64,000 nt of DNA from Patescibacteria group bacterium (GTDB lineage: Bacteria > Patescibacteriota > Patescibacteriia > XYB2-FULL-38-15). Location of the stretch: assembly GCA_041650995.1 (NCBI GenBank), contig JBAZJZ010000001.1, forward strand, positions 427,302 through 491,301, given 5' to 3'. Positions within the stretch are counted from its first letter, which is position 1; every line of letters begins with the position of its first letter. The position numbers and the translations under genes were made by a program. The notes under the pieces were generated by a model. That model worked only from the letters and a program-made list of their open reading frames with translations, was not told where the DNA came from and did not search any database. Shown one piece after another: positions 51,746 through 62,800 of the stretch.

Positions 51746-51843
51746 GGGAAAGGGATAAGTAAAAATTGTCTGCGATGATTTCCGCAAACTTTGAATTATT
51801 TTATTATAACACAAAAACTCCCGATTTGGGAGGTTAACATTCC

Positions 51844-51965
51844 TTGACAAAACCTTGAAAATAAGGTATATTAAAAGGTGTTTTAAAGCTTGGGCGAAAG
51901 GGCGTAAATAGCGCTTTTTCGCTTGGGCTGTATAGCCCCAGACACGGAATGAGCCGTGTTTGAAA
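51844..51965 (+). promoter_or_regulatory. canonical sigma70 promoter (TTGACA, 17 bp spacer, TATATT) plus conserved structured leader, copy 1
   Basis: TTGACA at 51844-51849 and TATATT at 51867-51872. The ~95-nt transcribed block is near-identical to 53287-53408 and contains hairpins such as CACGGAATGAGCCGTG. Confidence 0.6.
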
Positions 51966-52027
51966 CAAAAAAATCCGCCGAAGAGGCGGGAAAGAAGAAT
52001 CCGCCAGAGGCGGAGGAGGGATTGACA

Positions 52028-52494
52028 ATGAAGAAGTTCTGGATGGTGACGATGATCGCGATCCTGTTCGGTCTCACGACGACCGGCTGCCCGGACGGTG
52101 ACGACGACTACGACACGGATGCGGACATGGACTCCGACAGCGATGCCGGCTCCGACGCGGACGCCGAGACCGACACGGCCGAGGACGGCACGACGGACGA
52201 GACCGCCGACTGCCCGAGCGTGGCTGGCGAGTGGGCGTTGACATACCACAGTGATGCGACGGGTTTCGATGAGCACTACATCCTCACGCTCGAACAGAGC
52301 GGCTGCTCCTTGAGTGGCTACGACGATGATGGCGGTGCGTTCTCCGGCACCGTCAACGAAGACGGCTCTCTCTCTGGCGCGATTACGGTGGTACCCGTAC
52401 ACTGACTGGCAATCTCGTGAGTCCTCCTCGACTGGAGGGAAACTGGACTTCTACGGGGGGTGGATACGGCCAATGGTGGGCCGATCGCCAGTAA
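52028..52494 (+). pseudogene. GC-rich acidic lipoprotein, copy 1, frameshifted near 52385-52395
   Basis: GGAGG RBS, MKKFWMVTMIAILFGLTTTGC lipobox-like signal, poly-Asp linker. Homology to copy 2 (…TGNFTQTPPRMEGLW…WWADPQ*) continues in the +2 frame (…TGNLVSPPRLEGNW…WWADRQ*) after a premature stop. Confidence 0.55.
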
Positions 52495-52501
52495 TGCCAA
52501 A

Positions 52502-52542
52502 GCCCCGCAAACTGCAAAGTGCAGAATGCGGGGCGTTTTTTT
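52502..52542. terminator. bidirectional rho-independent terminator between lipoprotein copy 1 and the orphan cassette
   Basis: GCCCCGCA...TGCGGGGC stem followed by GTTTTTTTA. Confidence 0.55.
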
Positions 52543-52558
52543 ATCTGAAAATATTTTA

Positions 52559-53186
52559 TTATTTCGGCACAACTATGACACGGCCAGCGAAGGATGTCCA
52601 GTGCGGTTGGACATCACCGATGTCACAATCACTCAGATAACACCCTCTTCCCGTCCCCGTACAATCTCCATTACACCACCCCCAGTTGTCAGTAAGCTGA
52701 ACTCTTGGTTTGAAGACGCAGCAGGAGCCGTTGCCGGCAATAGCGCCATCTACGTTTTCAGGGCAAACTGCGGCGAAACAGTTGGAGTCTGAATCAGAAA
52801 CACAGGCGCGGACAGTACTCGCGGCGTTAGAAGGGCATTTATAAGTATGGGTAAAGTAGAAATAATCATCAGTGCAGGCACGATCTTCGGAATGGGCAAA
52901 ATCTGAGTTATCACAGGCATCTTTGCCAAGATGGTTTTTGTAGCGAGCGTTTCTTGTTCCGGCGATATCGCTATCATCATTCCAGTCGACTTGAACGGAT
53001 CTGATCGGACCGGTATCTTTATCGGCCGTGCCGAAGAATTGCATGGTGGCGACGTATTGGCCGCCGTAACTAACGACATTTTTAGGTTCTGTAGCACCGG
53101 ATGCGGTAAAGCCAAAGCCGGAGATAAAAATTTTCCCTCGCCCCTTGGGGGAGAGGGTTAGGGTGAGGGGTTCCGTAAGACGACCG
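52559..53186 (-). pseudogene. orphan C-terminal cassette homologous to the last ~200 aa of the giant protein
   Basis: Encodes ISGFGFTASGATEPKNVVSYGGQYVATMQFFGTADK...CPSNAASTVRACVSDSDSNCFAAVCPENVDGAI...CCVFKPRVQLTDNWGWCNG...VIVVPK. It aligns with the giant protein C-terminus, including identical stretches of 32 aa and 19 aa. Homology extends upstream of the annotated ATG to an in-frame stop at 53186-53188. No N-terminal region, signal peptide or promoter is present. Confidence 0.65.
53135..53157. repeat. CCCTCGCCCC-TTG-GGGGAGAGGG hairpin followed by TTAGGG, related to the 1832-1852 hairpin
   Basis: Same architecture and same TTAGGG tail as the hairpin after thyA. Confidence 0.45.
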
Positions 53187-53250
53187 TTATCTTTTTGGGA
53201 TATAATGATATATAATGAAGAAAAGGGATACTTTCATAACTCCCCTTAAT

Positions 53251-53271
53251 CCCCTCTTACCTTAAGAGGGG
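53251..53271. repeat. CCCCTCTTA-CC-TTAAGAGGGG hairpin
   Basis: Near-perfect inverted repeat just upstream of promoter copy 2. Confidence 0.45.
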
Positions 53272-53286
53272 AAACGTCAACGGGTC

Positions 53287-53408
53287 TTGACAAAACCTTG
53301 AAAATATAGTATATTAAAAGGTGTTTTAAAGCTTGGACGAAAGGGCGTAAATAACGCTTTTTCGCTTGGGCTTTATAGCCCCAGACACGGAATGAGCCGT
53401 GTTTGAAA
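53287..53408 (+). promoter_or_regulatory. canonical sigma70 promoter (TTGACA, 17 bp spacer, TATATT) plus conserved structured leader, copy 2
   Basis: TTGACA at 53287-53292 and TATATT at 53310-53315. Only a few substitutions relative to copy 1 over ~122 nt. The downstream leader diverges and forms a long CCTGAGC...GCTCAGG hairpin before the RBS. Confidence 0.6.
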
Positions 53409-53492
53409 ACAAGGGTGTTATTCCCTGAGCGACGCGCAAGCGGAGTCGAAGGGAGGCCTTCGACAAGCTCAGGCCATAACTGGAGGAAAGTC

Positions 53493-53963
53493 ATGACGAA
53501 GTTCTGGATGGTGGCGATGATCACGATCCTGTTCGGTCTCACGACCGGCTGCCCCGACGGGGACGACGACTACGACGCGGAAATGGACGCCGACAGCGAT
53601 GCCGGCTCCGACGCGGACGCGGACGCCGATCCCGACACGGCCGAGGACGGCACGACGGACGAGAGCACGGCCTGCCCGAACATCGCCGGCGACTGGGCGC
53701 TGACGTACCGGAACGACTTGGGTTACGAAGGATACTACACCCTCACGCTCGAGCAGGACGGATGTCTTGTGATTGGGTTGGATGACCTTTGCGAGTACTC
53801 CGGCACCATTTCGGAGAGTGGCTACGTTTCACTTTTCCGAGATTGTGCTGCTTCCGATCGTACGATCACCGGCAACTTCACCCAGACCCCCCCCCGCATG
53901 GAAGGATTGTGGGATGAATCGGAGGGAACTTCCCACGGCACATGGTGGGCTGATCCCCAGTGA
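53493..53963 (+). CDS. GC-rich acidic lipoprotein, copy 2, intact
   Basis: GGAGG RBS. MTKFWMVAMITILFGLTTGC lipoprotein-like signal. Asp-rich linker DGDDDYDAEMDADSDAGSDADADADPD, then a ~100-aa Cys-containing domain. Confidence 0.6.
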   Translation: MTKFWMVAMITILFGLTTGCPDGDDDYDAEMDADSDAGSDADADADPDTAEDGTTDESTACPNIAGDWALTYRNDLGYEGYYTLTLEQDGCLVIGLDDLCEYSGTISESGYVSLFRDCAASDRTITGNFTQTPPRMEGLWDESEGTSHGTWWADPQ

Positions 53964-53970
53964 ACCGAAA

Positions 53971-54023
53971 CCGGCGACGCGAACTTGAACACCTGTTCAG
54001 GTTTGCGTCGCCGGATTTTTTTT
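53971..54023. terminator. strong bidirectional terminator between lipoprotein copy 2 and the giant gene
   Basis: 10-bp stem CCGGCGACGC...GCGTCGCCGG followed by ATTTTTTTT. Confidence 0.6.
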
Positions 54024-54044: not shown

Positions 54045-57000
54045 TTACCTGGGTACTACAATGACCTTGCCGGAAAAATATGTCCAATGATTTATACCCG
54101 ATTCTCCTTCCCGCTCTGGAGAGCACTCTGAATCATAACACCCATTCACTCTTCCAGTACAACTCCCATTACACCAACCCCAGTTGTCAGTAAGCTGCAC
54201 TCTTGGTTTGAAGACGCAGCAGGAACCATTGCCGGGGATAGCGCCATCTACGTTTTCAGGGCAAACCGCGGCGAAACAATTGGAGTCTGAATCAGAAACA
54301 CAGGCGCGGACAGTGCTCGCGGCGTTAGAAGGACAGTTATAAATATTTGTAAAGTAGAAATGGTCTTCAGTGCAAGCGCCGGTTGAATGGGCAAAGTCTC
54401 TATTATCACAACCTTCCCGGCCAAGATGGTTTTTGTAGCGGCCAGTGGTGGTGCTTGAAGTGCCCGGACCGGCGTTCCAGTCTACAACCACCTTGGTGAT
54501 AGGACCCGCGTTTTTATCGGCTGTACCGAAGAACTGCATAACAGCGTAAAGCTCTCCGCCATAGCCGACGACGTTTACTGGTTCGCTGGCGCCGGACGGA
54601 GTTAAACCCGTGCCGTCTATCCCGTTTACGGAAATCCCTTGAATTAAATTAGGCCCTTCCTCCATTAAAGGTTTGCACTTGTCGCCCTGGCAGTCGGTGA
54701 TGGGCCAAATTTGTGGCGGAGAGGGCCACGCAGTTACACCAGCCGGTAACGCTCCGCTCTTTGAAGTATCTGTAATATCGGCTGGCGGAACATCGGAGCC
54801 TGAATAAACGGCCGTTAAACTATCCCACGTAAATAATCCGTAACGTTTGGCGAAAAGCTGCCTGATTCTTTCGTGTGCCGCTCGGCTTGTTTCTTTTTCA
54901 ACGCTGCCAGCCGGCTCGCTCCCCGCCTGGACACAAACGCCGCTAATACAATCAAAATTACGGCACTCTTCATGAGTGGTACACTGACGCGGCAAAGCCG
55001 TTCCTCCAATTGTTTTACACTCGCCAATTGGCGCTGAAGGGCTATAACCGGCAATAAAATTACATTCTCTTACCAAATCACCAGTAAAATCTGAATCAGC
55101 TAAAGGCGTGCTTGCCTGACAATAACCTCTGCCCGTGCTTCCACCAAAGACGCATGGACCCATGGCTCCGCATTCTGCGTCATCAGCACACGATTTATGA
55201 CACTGGACATTGCCGCAAATCCAATTACGCGTGCAATCTTCCGCCACCCTGCATGACGTTCCTCCTGCTGCCGGAGAACGATAGACGGAAGTGTAAGACC
55301 TATCTTCATTTGGCACAGTCAAACCAACACCTTCTTCCGGATACTTTGTAAAGCCAGACGCCGGGCAACTTAAATCAGGATTTGTTAAACTAATTGTCAA
55401 ATTATCTGTATCCTTTCGGCAAGTAGGAATAGTTAAGAAATCATTTAACGGGTCGCTGCTGGACGCGCCAAAAGGTCGGGGCTCTACATCATAAAAATAG
55501 CCAAGCAAAGATTGATACGGATCGGCGACCACTGGGTGTCCGCCATCTTGCCAGATCCTGTCAGTCCACGCCTTATTTGCGTCTCTATCACTCGTGCCCG
55601 CGACTTGATAAAAAACCTTGCAACCAATGAACGGGTCTGAATGACTGGCGTATTTGCGGTATCCGGCCCCCTCTTCAACGCCGCCTTCTCGGCGACAATC
55701 TTTAAACTGATCAAAAGTCTCGCGTAAATTATCAACATAATAAACTTCTAAACCATTGCTATTTATGCGATCTGCAGCGCGAGTTAAATTACAGCTTGAA
55801 TCATCTGGCCGCTTTGAATTTTTTGGCACGCAACGATACGGACAATCATTATCTCCTATATCTTCTTCACACCATCCTTCGTATTCGCAATGAGTTATTA
55901 AAGCAAAATCATTTACCGGATCACATTGTGTTATGTTTTTAGCGCAAGCTCCTAGAGCTTCGCCTCGTTCAGCATGGCAATAGCAATCTTCTCCTCCGAC
56001 ACAACCGCTATATCCTCCTAATTCCGCACATTCACGATCATCTTCACTATCAAAACCAACCGGACTTAAATTTCTAAAAACACCGGCCTCTAAACAATAA
56101 TATTTATTTCCCAACGGGAACCCTGCTGTTTCATAATTATTATATAAATCTGGCATGCCGGGAATTTGATCCATTGGATACCAAGTAAGACAGGCCAACT
56201 GATCCGGCTTCCCGTTAATTGAAGTTGATGTATCGCGTTCTAAACAAAATCCACTCCAGCCAAGAACAACATCTATTTTTTCAGCGGAATAACATTTGCC
56301 ATCGCCCAGGCACTCACTATCATCGGCACAAGTTTTACCCGGCTCTTTTCCGCCTACACAAATACTTGGCAAAGAAACGTTATCTTTATCAAAATATTTT
56401 GTTAACGCGCCACTACCATAGCTCGCTTTCTTGTATGAACATTCACAATCTTCCCCATTTTCGCAAATATTCGCGCCGCTAAACCCGGGTTGTTTACTCA
56501 AGGGCGACCAATTCTTTACTACGCTATTTGGAAAAGGAGATGATTGTTCCGGATAAGCGCGGCAGGAAATTTTTTCCGCGTTTTCCTCGGTCATCGCCAG
56601 AAGCGCGCCTGGCGCGAATGGATCACCGCGAAAATTAGTTATACAAATATTGTTGAAGCATTTACCATTATCACCGCATCGTGAACCATTTGTCTCGCTA
56701 GCGCAAAATCCCGGAGGATGCGTGGCACAAGAAATAACGCTACCAGCGGCGTCAAAACAGCGATCGTCAACAAAACCCAAGGTCTGGACTGGACTTTCTT
56801 CTGTGCCAATATTTACCGCGCGCAAATCAAATGCCTGATATTGGTTATAAATTGAATCGCCCGAATAATCCATTCCCTTGAAAGTAACGTCACGAGAAAC
56901 ATACAAATCTTTACTTAAAATCTTGCGCGAGGTTTCCGGCGTAAAATTGGAATCAGTACATTGCGCCGTAGCCTGTCCTACTTTTGCGTATTGTCGGCAA

Positions 57001-60000
57001 GATGTAACCGTATTGCACAAAACTTTCTGTCGTCCGGTTTGCGGATCAAAAGTTGAAGTCGTGCCAGAGCACGTCAGCCATTCCCCGCAAACGCGATCGC
57101 GGCGGACTTGGATAAGAGTGTTAGAGTCGTTCGGGTTAACAGCGATACGTTGTGGCCCGCCAGATGTATAAATAGAAGTTTGCCCCCTGTAAGTTATCCT
57201 GCACTCCGGGGCTGGTGAGCCTATCGGACAAGAAATTTGAACAACTCTCTGTCCTCCTAAATCAAAAGTGCTTAAACATCTCCAACCCGACGCGCCAGGC
57301 CTTGGTGCCGGATCGCCTGGGCAATCGGCGTCTGTATTGCAAGTGACACCCGAGATTTCATACGTATCCAAACTTGATCCCCTGATTGAGCCATTGACAC
57401 AAAGCTTACAATTTTGTTTTGTGCAATCAATCGGCGCGACTAACCCGCCCGGATCACCCGTTTTCTTTTCCGAGCTTAAATATGTCGCGTTGGCATTGTA
57501 AGTCAACTGCGGATTGCTTGTATCATTAAACAGAGCACAACCAGTTTTTTGCGAAGCCATGCCATTACAGTTCCCTGAACTGATTTTGTCATTCTTAATA
57601 TAATAATATGCCGCGCCTAGAGGGTCATCTGAAGTATCGGCCGGATCAACAAATTTTGTGCACCGGTCAGCCTGCGGAATACACTCGCCTACCCAACCGG
57701 AGTACGGGCAGGATCGTTTGTTATAAGAAACTGTGCAAGTTGTTCCGGTCTTGCCGGTAGCCCCGGCTGTACCAACAGTGCAAGCGCAACCCGCGGTATT
57801 CTGGCAAACGTAAGGCAGGCTGCAATTTGCGTCGCCATTTTTCCAAATATTGTAATACCCGCCGCTGAAATTCGCCGGATCGCAAGGTTCAAGCGGATTG
57901 CTTCCCTTTTTAAACCATCCGGAAACGTTTTGTCCGCTGACCGTCACATTATCTTTCCATTCACAAAGCCGAACGCCCGGATCTTTAAAATACATTTTTC
58001 CGCCGTCGGTCGTGGTGTATTCTTCACAGGACAAAAACCCGACTTGACAGAGAATTCTTCCCGTCGGGGAATTATAAAGCGCCGGATTGGCCAAGAGATT
58101 GACGGTATCATACTGCGGTTTGCCGTCATCCCCCACCTTCACGTTTCCGGCGGCGTCCAAGGTCGGCGAACCAAATTCAGCGCAACCTTTATTTTGCGCG
58201 GCGCATTTATATTCGTCGTTTACCACGATGTATGCGTAGGAATCCGTCGGAATCGTAACATTGTCGGACAATCTTTCTTCTTCCGAAAGAGCCGGCTCGC
58301 TGTCATTTTCCGTATTGAAAGTTTCCGCGGTCGCCGAGGTGTTATTATTAGTTTTTAATAATTTCGCGCAGCCGGCAGCGTCGGGCGAACAAAGCCTTGA
58401 AAAAGATTTTAGATAATGCAAACCATTCGCGCGATCATAATAACTTGCGCAGCCAAGCTGGGCTTGTGGCAAAAGCGCGGAAATAATACACTCACTGCGG
58501 TCTGAACTCCACGAACCCCCGGCAGTAGCGCAATCTCCTTGATCAGCAATTGAAAAATCAACCGCAAAAGACCGATCACAGGAAGCTGGCGTATTCCATG
58601 AATTTTTAACCACGTAAATATACGACTGAATTTCTCTCAAAATAATATTATCAATATAAACTGGGGTTGTTCCGCCCACCGAGGCAATCCGCAAAGTTTC
58701 ACCTCCGCCGGCAACACTCCAATCAACATAAACCGGACCGAGCGAGAAATATCGCCAGTCAAAAGAAAGATTTGTCGGACTCTTGGTCGCTGAACTAAAT
58801 TCTTTGCCGGAAGACGTGGCGCCCAAAAATTTAATATCTAATCTGCTATTTCCTTTAGCCCAGAAAGATAAGGTGTAAAGGCCATTCTGTCTAACCGCGG
58901 AGCCCAAATTTTTATCTAGTGTTCCCGTAGCGCCAAAGGATAAGGACTTCCCGCCGACAACAAGCGATTCAGAACTTATAACCGGCAAATCTGCTTCGTC
59001 CCAGTTGGCTATTGAAGAATCATCAAAATTATCATTTAAAATCACTGCCGTATTTGCTCCGGCATTGCCGCGATAAGCTCGGCAACCAACTGCTTCGTTT
59101 GAACAAGTACGAGACTCGGGCAAATAAACATTGTAAGCACACTCACTTTTTACCGCATCCCATCTTCCGCCCGAAGTTCCGCAATCAGCCGTGCTGGAAA
59201 TTGTTTTGCGGTACGGGTGGCAATCGTCCGTCATGATAATTGTTTTTGAATACAACCTATAATGTTTCAATCCGGCAGAATCGTAAAATTCACGGCAATC
59301 AGGATTAATTAAAGAATCTGCCTTGGTGCAAAGACCAACAAATGAAGCGCTGTCGCAAGTTAAACCGTCCGAGAGAAGCGCGGTGCATGGAGGAACTCCG
59401 CCACTCGGATCGCTATCCGGGGTCGTGGCTCCGCCCATCTTCAAATTCCAAGTTTTCAATTGATAACCGGTTGTGTCGCTTCCTTCCCAGGTGTAGAAAG
59501 CCGCTCCTGTCGCGCCGGGTTTTTCGCAGCGGCGAATCACGCTGAAATTTGCCACGGCTTCGTTTTCCAAACTCGTGAACTGATCGCAGCCAACGTCCGC
59601 GGCGTTACAAGTTCTGCCTGTCGTCGGGATAAAATAAACCGGGAATTTATCTTGTTCAAAATCAGTCGCGACTTGTTTAAATGTTTGATAGCCAACGCAT
59701 TCGGCCGGGCAATAATCATCCGGATAACTGGCTACGCCCGGGACAGACGGGTCGCCGTTTGTCGGACGGAATTCGTCACAACCCACGTCTTTTTCTTCGC
59801 AGGCTTTGGCGTAATTTTGGCATTGTTCGGCGTCGTTTGTTTTATTCAAGGCACCGGTTGAAGTGTAGTCATAACAAGAGTAATAATCTGGCGCGGCTTT
59901 CAAATAAAGCGCTTCGCCGGTTCTTCCCCAGCCTTCGTGGTATTGCGAAGCAAAAAATCCCTCTTCAAGTTGCACGGCGTCAATCAAACATGGAGCAGAT

Positions 60001-62390
60001 GGGGACATTGAGGCATTGTAAAAAGCGATACTGACTGTTGTCGCCGTATCTCCACTTGGAAATGAATGAGTAACCTGATATCTCTGCCACGACGTTTCCG
60101 AAGGTGCTGGAGTATTTCTTGCAGTGATCGTTCCGCCAAAATCAAACGTGCTGGACGCAGCGCAACCTTTGGCATAAAGGGAAAGAGTAAAAGTTCTGCC
60201 GCCGCGCTCCTTATCCAATCGAACCGTTTGACCGATGACTCCGCTTGCCTTTATTGCGGTTCGGCCGAAATAGGTGTCCGAAGCAGCTTCCGCGTTTGGA
60301 TCGCCGTACACCCCCCAAGGAATTGGCCAAGAAGCAAATTCATCTTTAACACCATCACCAGCCGTTCCGGTAAAATTTTCAAAACTGCTGTTACTAACTA
60401 AATTTAATTTTGTATCCGACGTTGTCCGTAAAAATTCATTACAACCCGGCTCGTCGCATTGAGTAATATTTTTATTAAAGAAAATTCTGTCTGATCGGCG
60501 GGCCGCGGTTCCCGAACCAGTAAGCGTATCTTGCCAGAGCCAGTCGTCCCCGACTTTTGATTGTCGAGTTGAATACCAACGGCAGCCAATGTCATCGGCA
60601 TTGCAAGGCGGACCATAATCAACCGTGTTTGTGACATAAGAAACATTTTGCCCGTCGCTTCGTTTTAAAAGCTTACAAGTATCGTATTGCGCATCACACT
60701 TATCTCCGTCCAGCCGCCAGATATTTTTTTCTCTGGTGCAATAACCCCAGCCGCCTTCGCAATTTCCTTGGTCATCTTCAGCAATACAAGTCGGTGAATC
60801 AACACATGTTTCCTGGCGGAAACTGTTTTCCGTGGTTTGAAGCAACGGCCCATAAACCCGCGCGCGGCATTGCTCGGCCGGCGCTTTCAAAATCCAGTCT
60901 GGATCAATTAAATGACAATACGGATGCTCAGTATCGGCTTTACCTTCTGGATAAGCCGGATCGGTATAATTACAATCATGAAACCGATCAACTACTTCTT
61001 TTAAACTTACGGGTTCGCTGCTTGTTTGACTTTGCGCGGCAATTTCCCAACCAATGGAAATAATTCTCGCCTTTCTTAATTTAACGAGATTGCTATAGCA
61101 ATAGCCATAAGTGTAACAATTTGGATCCTGATTTTTTGCTGTGTTTGAAGGAGGAAATAGTGGCCACTCGCCGTGCAAATATTCCTGTTTGATCGCCTCG
61201 CTAATCGTGAGCGCCTCTCCGGTTTGCGCCTGCCGGACCGCGGCTTCAAATTTTCCATCCATCACGCAATTATTTGTGCCTTTAAATTTTTCAGGACAAA
61301 CAATAAAATCAGATAAGATATCGTAAGTGCCGCCTTCTTTAATTTGCGGCACAAGCAAATCGGCAAAAGCCAGCTCCGCGGCACGCCGTCCGCCCCAGGC
61401 TGTTCCCTCTTTTGAGGTCGCGTCCTCACCCTTCGGAAAAAGATCCGCCAGAGAATACATCCCTTTACTAAAAATATTCTCCATTGTTTTGGAAAGCAGG
61501 GTACTTACAAAAGTTGATACCATCACCGAAAGTATTCCCTGTGCCCCAGCCGAGAGCGCCTGGCCAGAAAGACTCCACTTTAATTGTTCCGCGTCAACCG
61601 GACCCTCAGTTTGAATTTCCGAAGTTTGGCGAATAACTTCCGCCGGAGTTTTTACTTTTCCGCTGATAAGTTCTGATGAAGGTAAAAAACCTTGCCCTTC
61701 TTCTCTGGTTAAGGCTGCCGTATCAGAAGCGCTTCTTTCCGCATTGAATGCTCCGACATACGCGCTCATTGCTAAATCAAGATCCGTGCCTGCTCCGTAA
61801 CCAATTTGAAACTGCGAAGCTGCTTCCCGTAAAAAATCTTCTGTTTGCACTTCAGCGATAAATGACTCCCAGTTTGAACGAATCGACGACCATTCGCAAG
61901 TTGGTGGCGGCAATCCGTCCGCGTATGTTTGGGCTAACTGCAGCTGAAGAGCAAGTCCCAGTCTCGGATTTGGCGGAGCGCAAAAATTAACACCAACCAT
62001 TTCGCCAAAACTTCCGATAAATTCACCTGCCGCGTCTAAAGCGGCGTTACCTAAATAATCTCCCCAACCTTCAGTGGAAAAAAGCGGCATCTGTCCGCCC
62101 CCGCCGGAAGCCAGACTAACAGCCAAATCATACGATAATTTTTGCATGAAGCGCGAGGCGGCGTTAATCAAAGCCATTGTTCCCGCATTCACTACCAGAA
62201 CTTTCAAAAAATCTTTTATGTTTTTAATTGTTGTTTGGGCGCCAGTTACCGGGTCGGAAACAACCATTTGCGCCTCGGCCGGACGAGCATATAAAAAGAC
62301 GCCGGAAACAACCTGGGTCAAAATAAAACAAATCAAAACCGCGCTAACAGTCCATTTTTTTACTTTATAATTTCTCTGGATAACAGACAT
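54045..62390 (-). CDS. giant (2781 aa) cysteine-rich secreted protein, putative surface adhesin-like protein
   Basis: Single uninterrupted ORF. Signal peptide ending ARPAEA|QM. More than 150 Cys, many Trp/Gly/Asp, no recognizable enzymatic motif. The C-terminal ~200 aa are homologous to the orphan cassette at 52559-53186. Confidence 0.75.
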   Translation of the reverse strand: MSVIQRNYKVKKWTVSAVLICFILTQVVSGVFLYARPAEAQMVVSDPVTGAQTTIKNIKDFLKVLVVNAGTMALINAASRFMQKLSYDLAVSLASGGGGQMPLFSTEGWGDYLGNAALDAAGEFIGSFGEMVGVNFCAPPNPRLGLALQLQLAQTYADGLPPPTCEWSSIRSNWESFIAEVQTEDFLREAASQFQIGYGAGTDLDLAMSAYVGAFNAERSASDTAALTREEGQGFLPSSELISGKVKTPAEVIRQTSEIQTEGPVDAEQLKWSLSGQALSAGAQGILSVMVSTFVSTLLSKTMENIFSKGMYSLADLFPKGEDATSKEGTAWGGRRAAELAFADLLVPQIKEGGTYDILSDFIVCPEKFKGTNNCVMDGKFEAAVRQAQTGEALTISEAIKQEYLHGEWPLFPPSNTAKNQDPNCYTYGYCYSNLVKLRKARIISIGWEIAAQSQTSSEPVSLKEVVDRFHDCNYTDPAYPEGKADTEHPYCHLIDPDWILKAPAEQCRARVYGPLLQTTENSFRQETCVDSPTCIAEDDQGNCEGGWGYCTREKNIWRLDGDKCDAQYDTCKLLKRSDGQNVSYVTNTVDYGPPCNADDIGCRWYSTRQSKVGDDWLWQDTLTGSGTAARRSDRIFFNKNITQCDEPGCNEFLRTTSDTKLNLVSNSSFENFTGTAGDGVKDEFASWPIPWGVYGDPNAEAASDTYFGRTAIKASGVIGQTVRLDKERGGRTFTLSLYAKGCAASSTFDFGGTITARNTPAPSETSWQRYQVTHSFPSGDTATTVSIAFYNASMSPSAPCLIDAVQLEEGFFASQYHEGWGRTGEALYLKAAPDYYSCYDYTSTGALNKTNDAEQCQNYAKACEEKDVGCDEFRPTNGDPSVPGVASYPDDYCPAECVGYQTFKQVATDFEQDKFPVYFIPTTGRTCNAADVGCDQFTSLENEAVANFSVIRRCEKPGATGAAFYTWEGSDTTGYQLKTWNLKMGGATTPDSDPSGGVPPCTALLSDGLTCDSASFVGLCTKADSLINPDCREFYDSAGLKHYRLYSKTIIMTDDCHPYRKTISSTADCGTSGGRWDAVKSECAYNVYLPESRTCSNEAVGCRAYRGNAGANTAVILNDNFDDSSIANWDEADLPVISSESLVVGGKSLSFGATGTLDKNLGSAVRQNGLYTLSFWAKGNSRLDIKFLGATSSGKEFSSATKSPTNLSFDWRYFSLGPVYVDWSVAGGGETLRIASVGGTTPVYIDNIILREIQSYIYVVKNSWNTPASCDRSFAVDFSIADQGDCATAGGSWSSDRSECIISALLPQAQLGCASYYDRANGLHYLKSFSRLCSPDAAGCAKLLKTNNNTSATAETFNTENDSEPALSEEERLSDNVTIPTDSYAYIVVNDEYKCAAQNKGCAEFGSPTLDAAGNVKVGDDGKPQYDTVNLLANPALYNSPTGRILCQVGFLSCEEYTTTDGGKMYFKDPGVRLCEWKDNVTVSGQNVSGWFKKGSNPLEPCDPANFSGGYYNIWKNGDANCSLPYVCQNTAGCACTVGTAGATGKTGTTCTVSYNKRSCPYSGWVGECIPQADRCTKFVDPADTSDDPLGAAYYYIKNDKISSGNCNGMASQKTGCALFNDTSNPQLTYNANATYLSSEKKTGDPGGLVAPIDCTKQNCKLCVNGSIRGSSLDTYEISGVTCNTDADCPGDPAPRPGASGWRCLSTFDLGGQRVVQISCPIGSPAPECRITYRGQTSIYTSGGPQRIAVNPNDSNTLIQVRRDRVCGEWLTCSGTTSTFDPQTGRQKVLCNTVTSCRQYAKVGQATAQCTDSNFTPETSRKILSKDLYVSRDVTFKGMDYSGDSIYNQYQAFDLRAVNIGTEESPVQTLGFVDDRCFDAAGSVISCATHPPGFCASETNGSRCGDNGKCFNNICITNFRGDPFAPGALLAMTEENAEKISCRAYPEQSSPFPNSVVKNWSPLSKQPGFSGANICENGEDCECSYKKASYGSGALTKYFDKDNVSLPSICVGGKEPGKTCADDSECLGDGKCYSAEKIDVVLGWSGFCLERDTSTSINGKPDQLACLTWYPMDQIPGMPDLYNNYETAGFPLGNKYYCLEAGVFRNLSPVGFDSEDDRECAELGGYSGCVGGEDCYCHAERGEALGACAKNITQCDPVNDFALITHCEYEGWCEEDIGDNDCPYRCVPKNSKRPDDSSCNLTRAADRINSNGLEVYYVDNLRETFDQFKDCRREGGVEEGAGYRKYASHSDPFIGCKVFYQVAGTSDRDANKAWTDRIWQDGGHPVVADPYQSLLGYFYDVEPRPFGASSSDPLNDFLTIPTCRKDTDNLTISLTNPDLSCPASGFTKYPEEGVGLTVPNEDRSYTSVYRSPAAGGTSCRVAEDCTRNWICGNVQCHKSCADDAECGAMGPCVFGGSTGRGYCQASTPLADSDFTGDLVRECNFIAGYSPSAPIGECKTIGGTALPRQCTTHEECRNFDCISGVCVQAGSEPAGSVEKETSRAAHERIRQLFAKRYGLFTWDSLTAVYSGSDVPPADITDTSKSGALPAGVTAWPSPPQIWPITDCQGDKCKPLMEEGPNLIQGISVNGIDGTGLTPSGASEPVNVVGYGGELYAVMQFFGTADKNAGPITKVVVDWNAGPGTSSTTTGRYKNHLGREGCDNRDFAHSTGACTEDHFYFTNIYNCPSNAASTVRACVSDSDSNCFAAVCPENVDGAIPGNGSCCVFKPRVQLTDNWGWCNGSCTGRVNGCYDSECSPEREGESGINHWTYFSGKVIVVPR

Positions 62391-62410: not shown

Positions 62411-62800
62411 TCAGGAATTATGAATTATGGTTTTTGATTTTTTGATTAAACCGTTAGTAATTTTATTCACCTTAATGGTCTGTTCGGCAATTCTATTAAA
62501 ATCTGCTCCGGCAATATAACCAATATCTCTGGCCACTAATAATTGATTCTGAATTTCCGTTAAAGAGCCAAGCGCCATTGAATAAAATTGTAATTTTTCT
62601 TTGAAGGACTGCCTACTAAATCCTTCGGCAATATTTGATGTAAAAGAAATTCCCGCGCGGCGCAGTTGATTTGTCAAACAAAATAATTCCTCCCTGGGAA
62701 ATATCTTCGTCAATTTGTAAATGTCCAAAACTAATTTATGTCCTTCTTTCCACGCATCGAGGTCGGTAAAAGATTTTATCTTCCCTGATTCCTGATTCAT
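62411..62800 (-). CDS. four-helix-bundle protein (TIGR02436-like, the family often found in 23S rRNA intervening sequences)
   Basis: Signature FPREELFCLTNQLRRAGISFTSNIAEGFSRQS...MALGSLTEIQNQLLVARDIGYI. Confidence 0.8.
   Translation of the reverse strand: MNQESGKIKSFTDLDAWKEGHKLVLDIYKLTKIFPREELFCLTNQLRRAGISFTSNIAEGFSRQSFKEKLQFYSMALGSLTEIQNQLLVARDIGYIAGADFNRIAEQTIKVNKITNGLIKKSKTIIHNS

Follow-up and report, generated by a model that had tools for sequence, protein, structure and literature searches.

We analysed a 64-kb window (the whole stretch of 64,000 nucleotides (nt) from contig JBAZJZ010000001.1 of a Patescibacteria group bacterium), in which two neighbouring lipoprotein genes are each preceded by a nearly identical block consisting of a promoter and a transcribed leader. 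This leader is a member of a real and previously uncatalogued family of structured 5' leaders. We favour, with moderate confidence, the view that the block joins a strong promoter to a conserved, cis-acting structured domain of the 5' untranslated region (5' UTR), which would act in the stability, processing or factor binding of the lipoprotein mRNA and would possibly exist in two states. An earlier note, made from the letters of the window, had proposed a cis-acting conserved leader at this place; the promoter and the transcribed, structured and conserved RNA with its compensatory changes, described below, agree with that proposal.

Anatomy of the duplicated block

The block is a 123-nt direct repeat (51843-51965 and 53286-53408) with 118 of its 123 bases identical (96%), and sub-blocks of 27-30 nt from it did not recur in 100 shuffled windows. 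Each copy begins exactly at a promoter of the form TTGACA-17-TATATT, so that the two near-identical, promoter-bearing blocks of the earlier note are confirmed. Both promoters score 11/12 to the consensus, a quality reached by only six sites in the whole window. The block promoter is of a strong sigma-70 type, and it places the predicted transcription start at about 51877 in copy 1 and about 53320 in copy 2. The repeat is the best-conserved piece of a segmental duplication of ~1.45-1.5 kb. In each unit the block is followed by a lipoprotein gene with its terminator and then by the 3' end of a giant gene in convergent orientation. The coding parts of the units are 78-94% identical, compared to 96% for the block. 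The sequences upstream of the -35 hexamer are unrelated between the copies. Those from the end of the block to the start codon are also unalignable and form different GC-rich hairpins ahead of the ribosome-binding site (RBS), just as the earlier note had described.

The same note had placed the few substitutions between the copies outside obvious stems, and this was observed to be only partly correct. Two of the five differences fall in the promoter spacer (51864, 51865) and one in the loop of a small hairpin (51930). The other two lie in a stem: at 51894, in the 5' arm of the long hairpin, G is replaced by A, which gives an A.C mismatch (A is the state of most relatives at the equivalent position), while the change at 51911 converts the loop-closing U.G pair to U-A.

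The plus-strand RNA is predicted to form a 19-bp hairpin starting near the predicted transcription start, followed by a 9-bp hairpin (positions in Table 1). The fold had z scores of -6.4 (copy 1) and -7.1 (copy 2), and none of 200 shuffles was as good, which upholds both the claimed stem-loops of the transcribed block and their standing against shuffled controls. The minus-strand fold was weaker (z = -3.7 and -4.3). The long hairpin includes six G.U pairs and, because of its dependence on them, is possible only in the plus-strand RNA.

Across the family, the leader starts with a closing helix, P1 (GGCU/AGCC in the family; GGUGUU/AGCCCC in the window), followed by an internal loop that is A-rich on one side and U-rich on the other. 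Then comes the long hairpin, made of P2a (CCCA/UGGG in the family; CUUG/UGGG, wobble-paired, in the window) and P2b (strands CGAAAGGGCG/CGCUUUUUCG), separated by a 2x2 loop of variable sequence, all positions of which are paired in window copy 1. The hairpin ends in an apical loop, which is UAAAAUA or, at three loci of relatives (L002, L015 and L032; loci are designated by L numbers throughout), holds an insertion of 50-75 nt. Hairpin P3 (8-10 bp) and an A-rich linker follow, and P4, one or two GC-rich hairpins, precedes the Shine-Dalgarno (SD) sequence. An alternative hairpin, P2' (GGGCU/AGCCC), arises when the GGGC(U) segment pairs downstream with AGCCC, and it excludes both P2a and P1.

Two types of leader were recognized. 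Type S leaders (window, L010b, L015, L029) lack the ~11 nt found between the start site and P1 in type L. With the start site taken from the promoter, type S leaders begin inside P1, whereas type L leaders have ~11-14 unpaired nt first. Towards the gene, all relatives retain a P4-equivalent hairpin and GGAGG; in all versions the SD, GGAGG(G/A), comes directly after P4 and 7-10 nt from the ATG. The SD was unpaired in the predicted folds of 15 leaders.

Some further observations concern the promoter and the variable parts of the leader. An inverted repeat, GTCAA-N6-TTGAC (53276-53291), overlaps the -35 hexamer of copy 2 and may be an operator; imperfect versions with GCCAA or GTTAA occur at the same place in other leaders. 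Many loci also have an extended -10-like sequence (TGCTATAAT or GATATAAT) ~30-90 nt upstream of the -35 (53199-53216 in the window, and the upstream regions of L002, L003, L010, L012 and L028), which may be a sign of a second promoter in tandem. In copy 2, the pre-SD hairpin (53420-53480) resembles the apical insertions of L002 (4787-4850), L015 (5795-5875) and L032 (3229-3320), with which it shares the pattern ...GAGCGA...AAGCGG...GACAAGCTC...; judged from this resemblance, they may be one small palindromic mobile element sitting at different positions of the leader.

Conservation in relatives and the two alternative pairings

The intact lipoprotein of the window has ~30 homologues, one of them from Candidatus Falkowbacteria, and the proteins of the family share on average ~60% identity. 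We examined the DNA around twelve homologous proteins together with at least five loci from a protein-based scan of Joint Genome Institute (JGI) metagenomes. The upstream regions of the homologues align from the -35 hexamer through P3, and the flanks on either side are unalignable. The promoter was present upstream of every homologue with enough upstream DNA (13 versions); those of L029 and L033, both of which end at a contig end, are not fully readable. Of 15 distinct versions, 14 carry the RNA block by regular-expression scan and covariance model, so the conservation extends beyond the duplication in the window. The covariance model, trained on 13 leaders, scored these 14 versions at 68-123 bits and gave no further match in the window or in unrelated loci; the opposite strand reached at most 24 bits. 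Additional copies in the window or in the relatives' loci were thereby rejected, as the model returned the two known window copies and one or two per relative. The exception among the 15 versions is L031 (74-285), which keeps the promoter, P3, P4 and SD and has a different long hairpin. This hairpin, of different sequence, contains a CCCCCUCUC...GGGGG element resembling repetitive extragenic palindromic (REP) sequences.

To the extent scanned, the family is narrow. A pattern scan of one genome per species (185,579 species) gave three true matches, all in Patescibacteria, one per genome and all at the lipoprotein locus, besides four chance matches in unrelated phyla. Because each genome has this single match, at the lipoprotein locus only, we rejected the idea of a repeat or mobile element dispersed across genomes. 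The viral contigs contained no leader, only one chance 18-mer. In the scanned genomes the gene behind the leader always belongs to the lipoprotein family and to no other gene family. The leader family is thus so far confined to a narrow clade of Patescibacteria (Falkowbacteria and relatives). One record carrying it (OZ246416.1, 886 kb; L007/L022) is titled 'uncultured Gammaproteobacteria bacterium', yet it has a locus of Patescibacteria type, with type IV secretion system (T4SS) genes, the leader and lipoprotein, and the giant gene; its taxon label is probably wrong.

Although non-coding, the leader core has a mean identity across the family of 0.72, compared to 0.75 for the nucleotides of the coding sequence (CDS). 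The statement that the leader is far more conserved than the CDS therefore applies to the window copies (96% versus 78-94%) and not to the family. Leader and gene were also duplicated in another genome: L010 (3596-5241) has two paralogues in tandem, and both are preceded by a promoter and leader of their own, the leaders being one of type L and one of type S with identical P3 loops. This duplication and that in the window genome occurred independently. At L032 (3140-4558), two adjacent paralogues lie behind a single leader, and the second has none of its own.

We sought compensatory changes between the versions, as the earlier note had advised, and they were present in P3 and P2'. In P3, 86.5% of the cells were paired, seven of the nine pairs were changed on both sides, and at least five sequence variants were seen. 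P2' alone had 94% of cells paired, with double changes at two positions (2 of 500 shuffles): in L010b and L033, GC is replaced by AU, and in L003 and L028, UA is replaced by CG, with a U.G intermediate at the latter position in L032. Taken as whole models, the closed form (P1+P2a+P2b+P3) had 89.7% of cells paired and the open form (P2'+P2b+P3) 92.0%; neither value was reached in 500 shuffles, and slid controls gave 27-54% and 31-55%, respectively. L003 and L028 show a three-way correspondence, in which the 5' strand and the middle strand have both changed to fit an altered 3' partner. RNAalifold, run independently, picked P2a+P2b+P3.

P2a was paired in 100% of cells, with one-sided, wobble-mediated changes. 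P1 was paired in 71% and was not accepted as a solid helix; the low value is partly due to a one-base alignment offset in L009, L012 and L029. Together, P1 and P2a were paired in 86% of cells, compared to at most 59% in slid controls. Constrained folding of all leaders gave closed-minus-open differences of -7.2 to +2.8 kcal/mol. In type S leaders the closed fold lies 4-7 kcal/mol below the open one (4-5 kcal/mol in the window copies), and in type L the difference ranges from -4.3 to +2.8 kcal/mol. The P2b, P2' and P3 hairpins are accordingly well supported by sequence comparison, and the second, closed conformation appears plausible, though not proven, from conserved pairing and predicted energies.

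Candidate functions of the leader

The known RNA classes gave no relevant match. At the gathering threshold of Rfam 15, the whole window yielded three tRNAs only; the leader region at E<=10 yielded weak, unrelated sub-threshold matches only, and six variant loci at E<=0.1 yielded nothing. The earlier remark that the block matches no riboswitch consensus is borne out by these searches. P3 is not an intrinsic terminator because it has no U tail: its U's lie inside the stem, with GAAA or AAAA after it. No plus-strand terminator-like site was found between promoter and ATG in either copy. Sequestration of the SD by P4 was absent from the predicted folds. A leader peptide was rejected too, since some versions have GUG- or AUG-started mini open reading frames (ORFs) and others immediate stops, and no small ORF is conserved. 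Nor did we find a conserved multi-helix junction or internal loop of the kind expected of an aptamer, the domain being a single extended hairpin, and nothing was seen to connect the P2'/P2a alternative to the SD. As none of these features (terminator, SD-sequestering helix, conserved junction, leader ORF) was found, we consider a classical riboswitch or attenuator unlikely. Of the two options offered by the earlier note, the riboswitch-like element is weakened by the missing conserved junction or loop, the tail-less P3 and the free SD, and the separate small RNA (sRNA), which would have its own promoter, lacks a terminator of its own before the lipoprotein ORF.

These results led us to propose that the leader would gate neither transcription termination nor access to the RBS. 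Most likely it would instead determine how stable the lipoprotein mRNA, monocistronic and presumably strongly expressed, is or how it is processed, and/or provide a docking site for a trans-acting factor (protein or RNase). Because UGGGC(U) has two pairing partners, the element may be a switch with two states, one protecting the 5' end and the other exposing it. Paired upstream, the segment would form P2a (with P1) and give a long hairpin, almost uninterrupted and 19 bp in the window copies, burying the 5' end; paired downstream with AGCCC, it would form P2' and leave the 5' strand free. Speculatively, the helix of the closed fold in the window, running from the predicted 5' end, would shield the mRNA from 5'-end-dependent decay, and the open fold would expose it.

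Known stabilisers provide a precedent for such a leader. It is established that mRNAs can be stabilised by 5' stem-loops, by base pairing of the 5' terminus and by SD-like elements, as in ompA, aprE and STAB-SD, examples found in the reference list of PMC3997798 (which includes Bouvet & Belasco 1992 and Arnold, Yu & Belasco 1998 for ompA and 5'-terminal stem-loops, and Hambraeus 2002 and Agaisse & Lereclus 1996 for aprE and the STAB-SD of cryIIIA). A strong SD close to a structured element, as in these stabilisers, was found in all versions of the leader. As in Escherichia coli ompA, a long 5' UTR belongs to a presumably abundant mRNA for an envelope protein and consists of a hairpin, a single-stranded A/U-rich segment, another hairpin and an exposed RBS; the window copies also have a helix at or near the predicted 5' end. 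The likeness is one of layout only: there is no sequence or Rfam relation, the primary sequence is much more strongly conserved here, the alternative P2'/P2a pairing is found here, and the 5' end would be single-stranded in type L leaders. With aprE and STAB-SD the leader shares a monoderm-type organism and a 5' stem-loop plus purine-rich SD-like sequences (GGCGGAG... and then GGAGG) near the start codon. However, those elements are short and not a covarying family, and here three further conserved hairpins are tied to one gene. The leader also resembles the orphan cis-regulatory motifs and riboswitch candidates of the kind curated in Rfam: it is linked to a single gene family, its sequence is conserved, its stems covary and some of its helices exclude each other. 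Unlike them, it has no conserved junction or loop and no recognisable expression platform, and it was found in only 3 of 185,579 species genomes.

Several points weigh against this proposal, and in particular against its two-state part. P1 and P2a, tested jointly, showed no covariation beyond shuffles. This is because their 3' strand hardly varies, and the evidence for the closed fold, and hence for the switch, is therefore limited to pairing conservation and energy. The compensatory events in P2' possibly represent two or three lineages only. The different long hairpin of L031 means that the P2 sequence is dispensable in at least one lineage. The comparison comprises 14 sequences in all, every one of them metagenomic, and the transcription start was placed from the promoter alone. 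Type L leaders would have ~11-14 nt before their first helix, and an unpaired stretch of this length is poor for 5'-end protection. Finally, a plain stabiliser would not need the sequence conservation observed (ACGAAAG / CUUUUUCG), which hints at a specific partner. The unusual conservation of the P2b primary sequence likewise suggests such a partner.

A specific partner is the core of one alternative, in which a protein such as CsrA would bind the P2b helix and/or the A(A/C)GG of the P3 loop together with the SD, making the leader a protein-operated translational or stability operator. P2b is conserved beyond the needs of pairing, the P3 loop region of every version includes A(A/C)GG, which reads ACGGA(U/A) in 9 of 14, GGA recurs in the SD, and csrA is reported among the highly expressed genes of groundwater ultra-small prokaryotes (PMC9938205). 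However, 5 of the 14 versions have no GGA in the P3 loop, no csrA was found in the locus DNA examined, which represents small parts of the genomes, and the genes beside the locus include no candidate for the binding protein; we regard this operator as rather unlikely. The same conservation bears differently on a cleavage site for RNase III or another endonuclease, where the long hairpin would be cut to leave P3 as a protective 5' hairpin or to free an sRNA of ~60-90 nt. RNase III-processed leader hairpins are known from phage T7 R1.1 and from the rnc and pnp leaders, and RNase III sites usually have little primary-sequence conservation. Our leader has the length for a substrate (about 20 bp or more), with 19 contiguous pairs plus the closing helix in the window and an interrupted helix of ~20-30 bp in relatives; like those processed leaders, it has this double-stranded RNA near the mRNA 5' end and a second hairpin, P3, directly downstream, and it is driven by its own strong promoter. 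Its conserved sequence is atypical of them, though, no terminator defines an independent sRNA and no trans target is evident, so that cleavage is only a candidate event here and this explanation appears distinctly unlikely.

Two mutually exclusive, conserved pairings of similar energy in a 5' UTR tied to one gene family might also indicate a small-molecule riboswitch, with P2a, P2b and their loops as the aptamer and a ligand choosing between P2a and P2' to alter lipoprotein expression; having no Rfam match, it would be an orphan class. We consider this very unlikely: in addition to the missing junction, the 2x2 loop has no conserved sequence and is fully paired in copy 1 of the window, insertions of 50-75 nt are tolerated in the apical loop, no expression platform is seen (P3 is without a U tail, and neither fold occupies the SD), and an exported beta-barrel lipoprotein gives no metabolic clue to a ligand. 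It is also conceivable that the RNA has no function, in which case the 96% identity would stem from a duplication or gene conversion of recent date, and what is conserved in relatives would be a DNA element (promoter plus operator palindrome) or a sign of recent horizontal spread of the cassette. The block does lie inside a segmental duplication, the lipoprotein genes look foreign (GC at third codon positions, GC3, of ~0.8), leader modules look mosaic between loci (L010b, for example, has two P3-type hairpins), and GTCAA-N6-TTGAC overlaps the copy-2 -35. Against this stand helices that need G.U pairs and are strand-asymmetric (~100 versus <=24 bits), compensatory changes that keep P3 and P2' paired, and a leader as conserved as the CDS between flanks that are unalignable on both sides; this explanation is highly improbable.

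A more far-reaching form of the two-state idea is a switch specific to the candidate phyla radiation (CPR), in which both folds would be under selection and a trans signal (protein, nuclease, temperature or small molecule) would tune the amount of lipoprotein. The lipoprotein would here be a partner of the giant surface protein and of the T4SS-linked machinery thought to be used by episymbionts on their hosts. We consider this form quite unlikely.

Returning to the stability, processing or factor-binding domain that we favour, the leader would be a concrete post-transcriptional control point in a locus that is likely important for a host-attached lifestyle. It is tied to one surface-lipoprotein gene, beside a giant surface-protein gene and often beside a T4SS cluster. 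Patescibacteria have tiny genomes with few recognisable regulators, and to our knowledge almost no regulatory RNAs have been described in them. The leader could readily be proposed as a new Rfam family, for the annotation of which its covariance model can be used. Its importance would be higher if the mutually exclusive folds form a real switch; otherwise it is one more narrow orphan structured leader.

Neighbouring genes and other features of the locus

The features of the two units and of the adjoining giant gene are listed in Table 1.

Table 1. Positions of the leader elements and neighbouring features in the window
Feature	Position	Strand	Remarks
Promoter, copy 1	51844..51872	+	-35 TTGACA 51844-51849; 17-bp spacer; -10 TATATT 51867-51872
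Core leader, copy 1	51877..51962	+	covariance model match 100 bits
P1, copy 1	51877-51882 with 51934-51938	+	weak closing helix
Long hairpin (P2a + P2b), copy 1	51887-51929	+	5' arm 51887-51905; loop 51906-51910; 3' arm 51911-51929
P2', copy 1	51925-51929 with 51934-51938	+	alternative hairpin
P3, copy 1	51939-51947 with 51954-51962	+	
Leader 3' part, copy 1	51963..52027	+	A-rich linker 51963-51974; P4 hairpins 51975-51989 and 52000-52014; SD GGAGGG 52015-52020; ATG 52028
Lipoprotein gene, copy 1	52028..52495	+	frameshifted at (TC)4 run 52367-52375; frame 0 stop at 52405
Terminator-like hairpin with T run after lipoprotein copy 1	52503..52542	+	read directly from the sequence
Truncated duplicate of the giant-gene 3' end	52559..53125	-	unit 1; 81-88% identical to 54045-~54620
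Promoter, copy 2	53287..53315	+	-35 53287-53292; -10 53310-53315
Core leader, copy 2	53320..53405	+	covariance model match 100.6 bits
Long hairpin, copy 2	53330-53372	+	A.C mismatch at 53337
P2', copy 2	53368-53372 with 53377-53381	+	
P3, copy 2	53382-53390 with 53397-53405	+	
Leader 3' part, copy 2	53406..53492	+	composite GC-rich hairpin 53425-53472 (inner stem 53445-53464); SD GGAGGA 53482-53487; ATG 53493
Lipoprotein gene, copy 2 (intact)	53493..53963	+	156 amino acids; lipobox, acidic linker, predicted 8-stranded beta-barrel
Strong terminator between lipoprotein and giant gene	53971..54014	+	20-bp stem and T run
Convergent giant gene	54045..62390	-	2781 amino acids; neighbour kept in every relative

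In the intact lipoprotein, the acidic linker is disordered and the barrel, of the up-and-down type, was predicted confidently; it gave weak matches only, to the calycin, avidin, GrlR and Cap15 folds. In copy 1, frame +2 holds the last beta-strands of the family up to 52495, and NCBI annotates a 125-amino-acid product. The frameshift could reflect a pseudogene, a slippage-prone tract or an assembly error. The hairpin after this gene was not listed in the terminator scan, probably because of its long loop. The lipoprotein genes, including all family members and both window copies, have a GC content of 0.60-0.65 and a GC3 of 0.73-0.83, and their loci have 0.42-0.54 GC. The promoter and leader are host-like in composition, unlike the lipoprotein genes, whose anomaly is persistent.

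In relatives, the lipoprotein cassette always lies tail-to-tail with a gene of ~2750-2900 codons. On the upstream side there is no constant neighbour: T4SS genes stand there in the window, L002, L007 and L015 but not in L003, L010 and L012, and the other neighbours seen in relatives are genes for an Lcl_C protein, sugar-modifying enzymes or an AP endonuclease. The coordination with the divergent T4SS promoter that the earlier note had raised is unsupported by synteny because this upstream neighbour varies, whereas the giant gene is constant. The Patescibacteria T4SS is described in PMC12102498, the text of which does not contain the words 'promoter' or 'intergenic' and mentions a lipoprotein only as VirB7.

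The truncated duplicate in unit 1 covers the last ~190 codons of the giant gene and includes a 161-amino-acid ORF from an internal Met. Directly upstream of the giant gene, at 62411-62800 on the minus strand, lies a gene for a 23S_rRNA_IVP / bAvd-like four-helix-bundle protein (Pfam E = 1e-33). An Avd-like gene together with a duplicated giant-gene tail might suggest a diversity-generating retroelement. This was rejected: the mismatches between 52637-52879 and 54135-54377 involve all base types and not adenines alone, and no reverse transcriptase was found among the called genes of the locus.

Between unit 1 and the copy-2 promoter, G/C-rich palindromic REP-like elements of the CCCCTCTTACCTTAAGAGGGG type were observed at 53135-53170 and 53242-53271, with a related element at the same place in L015 (5660-5725). 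Read on the minus strand, the two P4 hairpins of copy 1, with the complemented A-rich linker behind them, have the score of intrinsic terminators, and the pattern is similar in most relatives. They could keep antisense transcription of the giant gene from running on into the T4SS operon.

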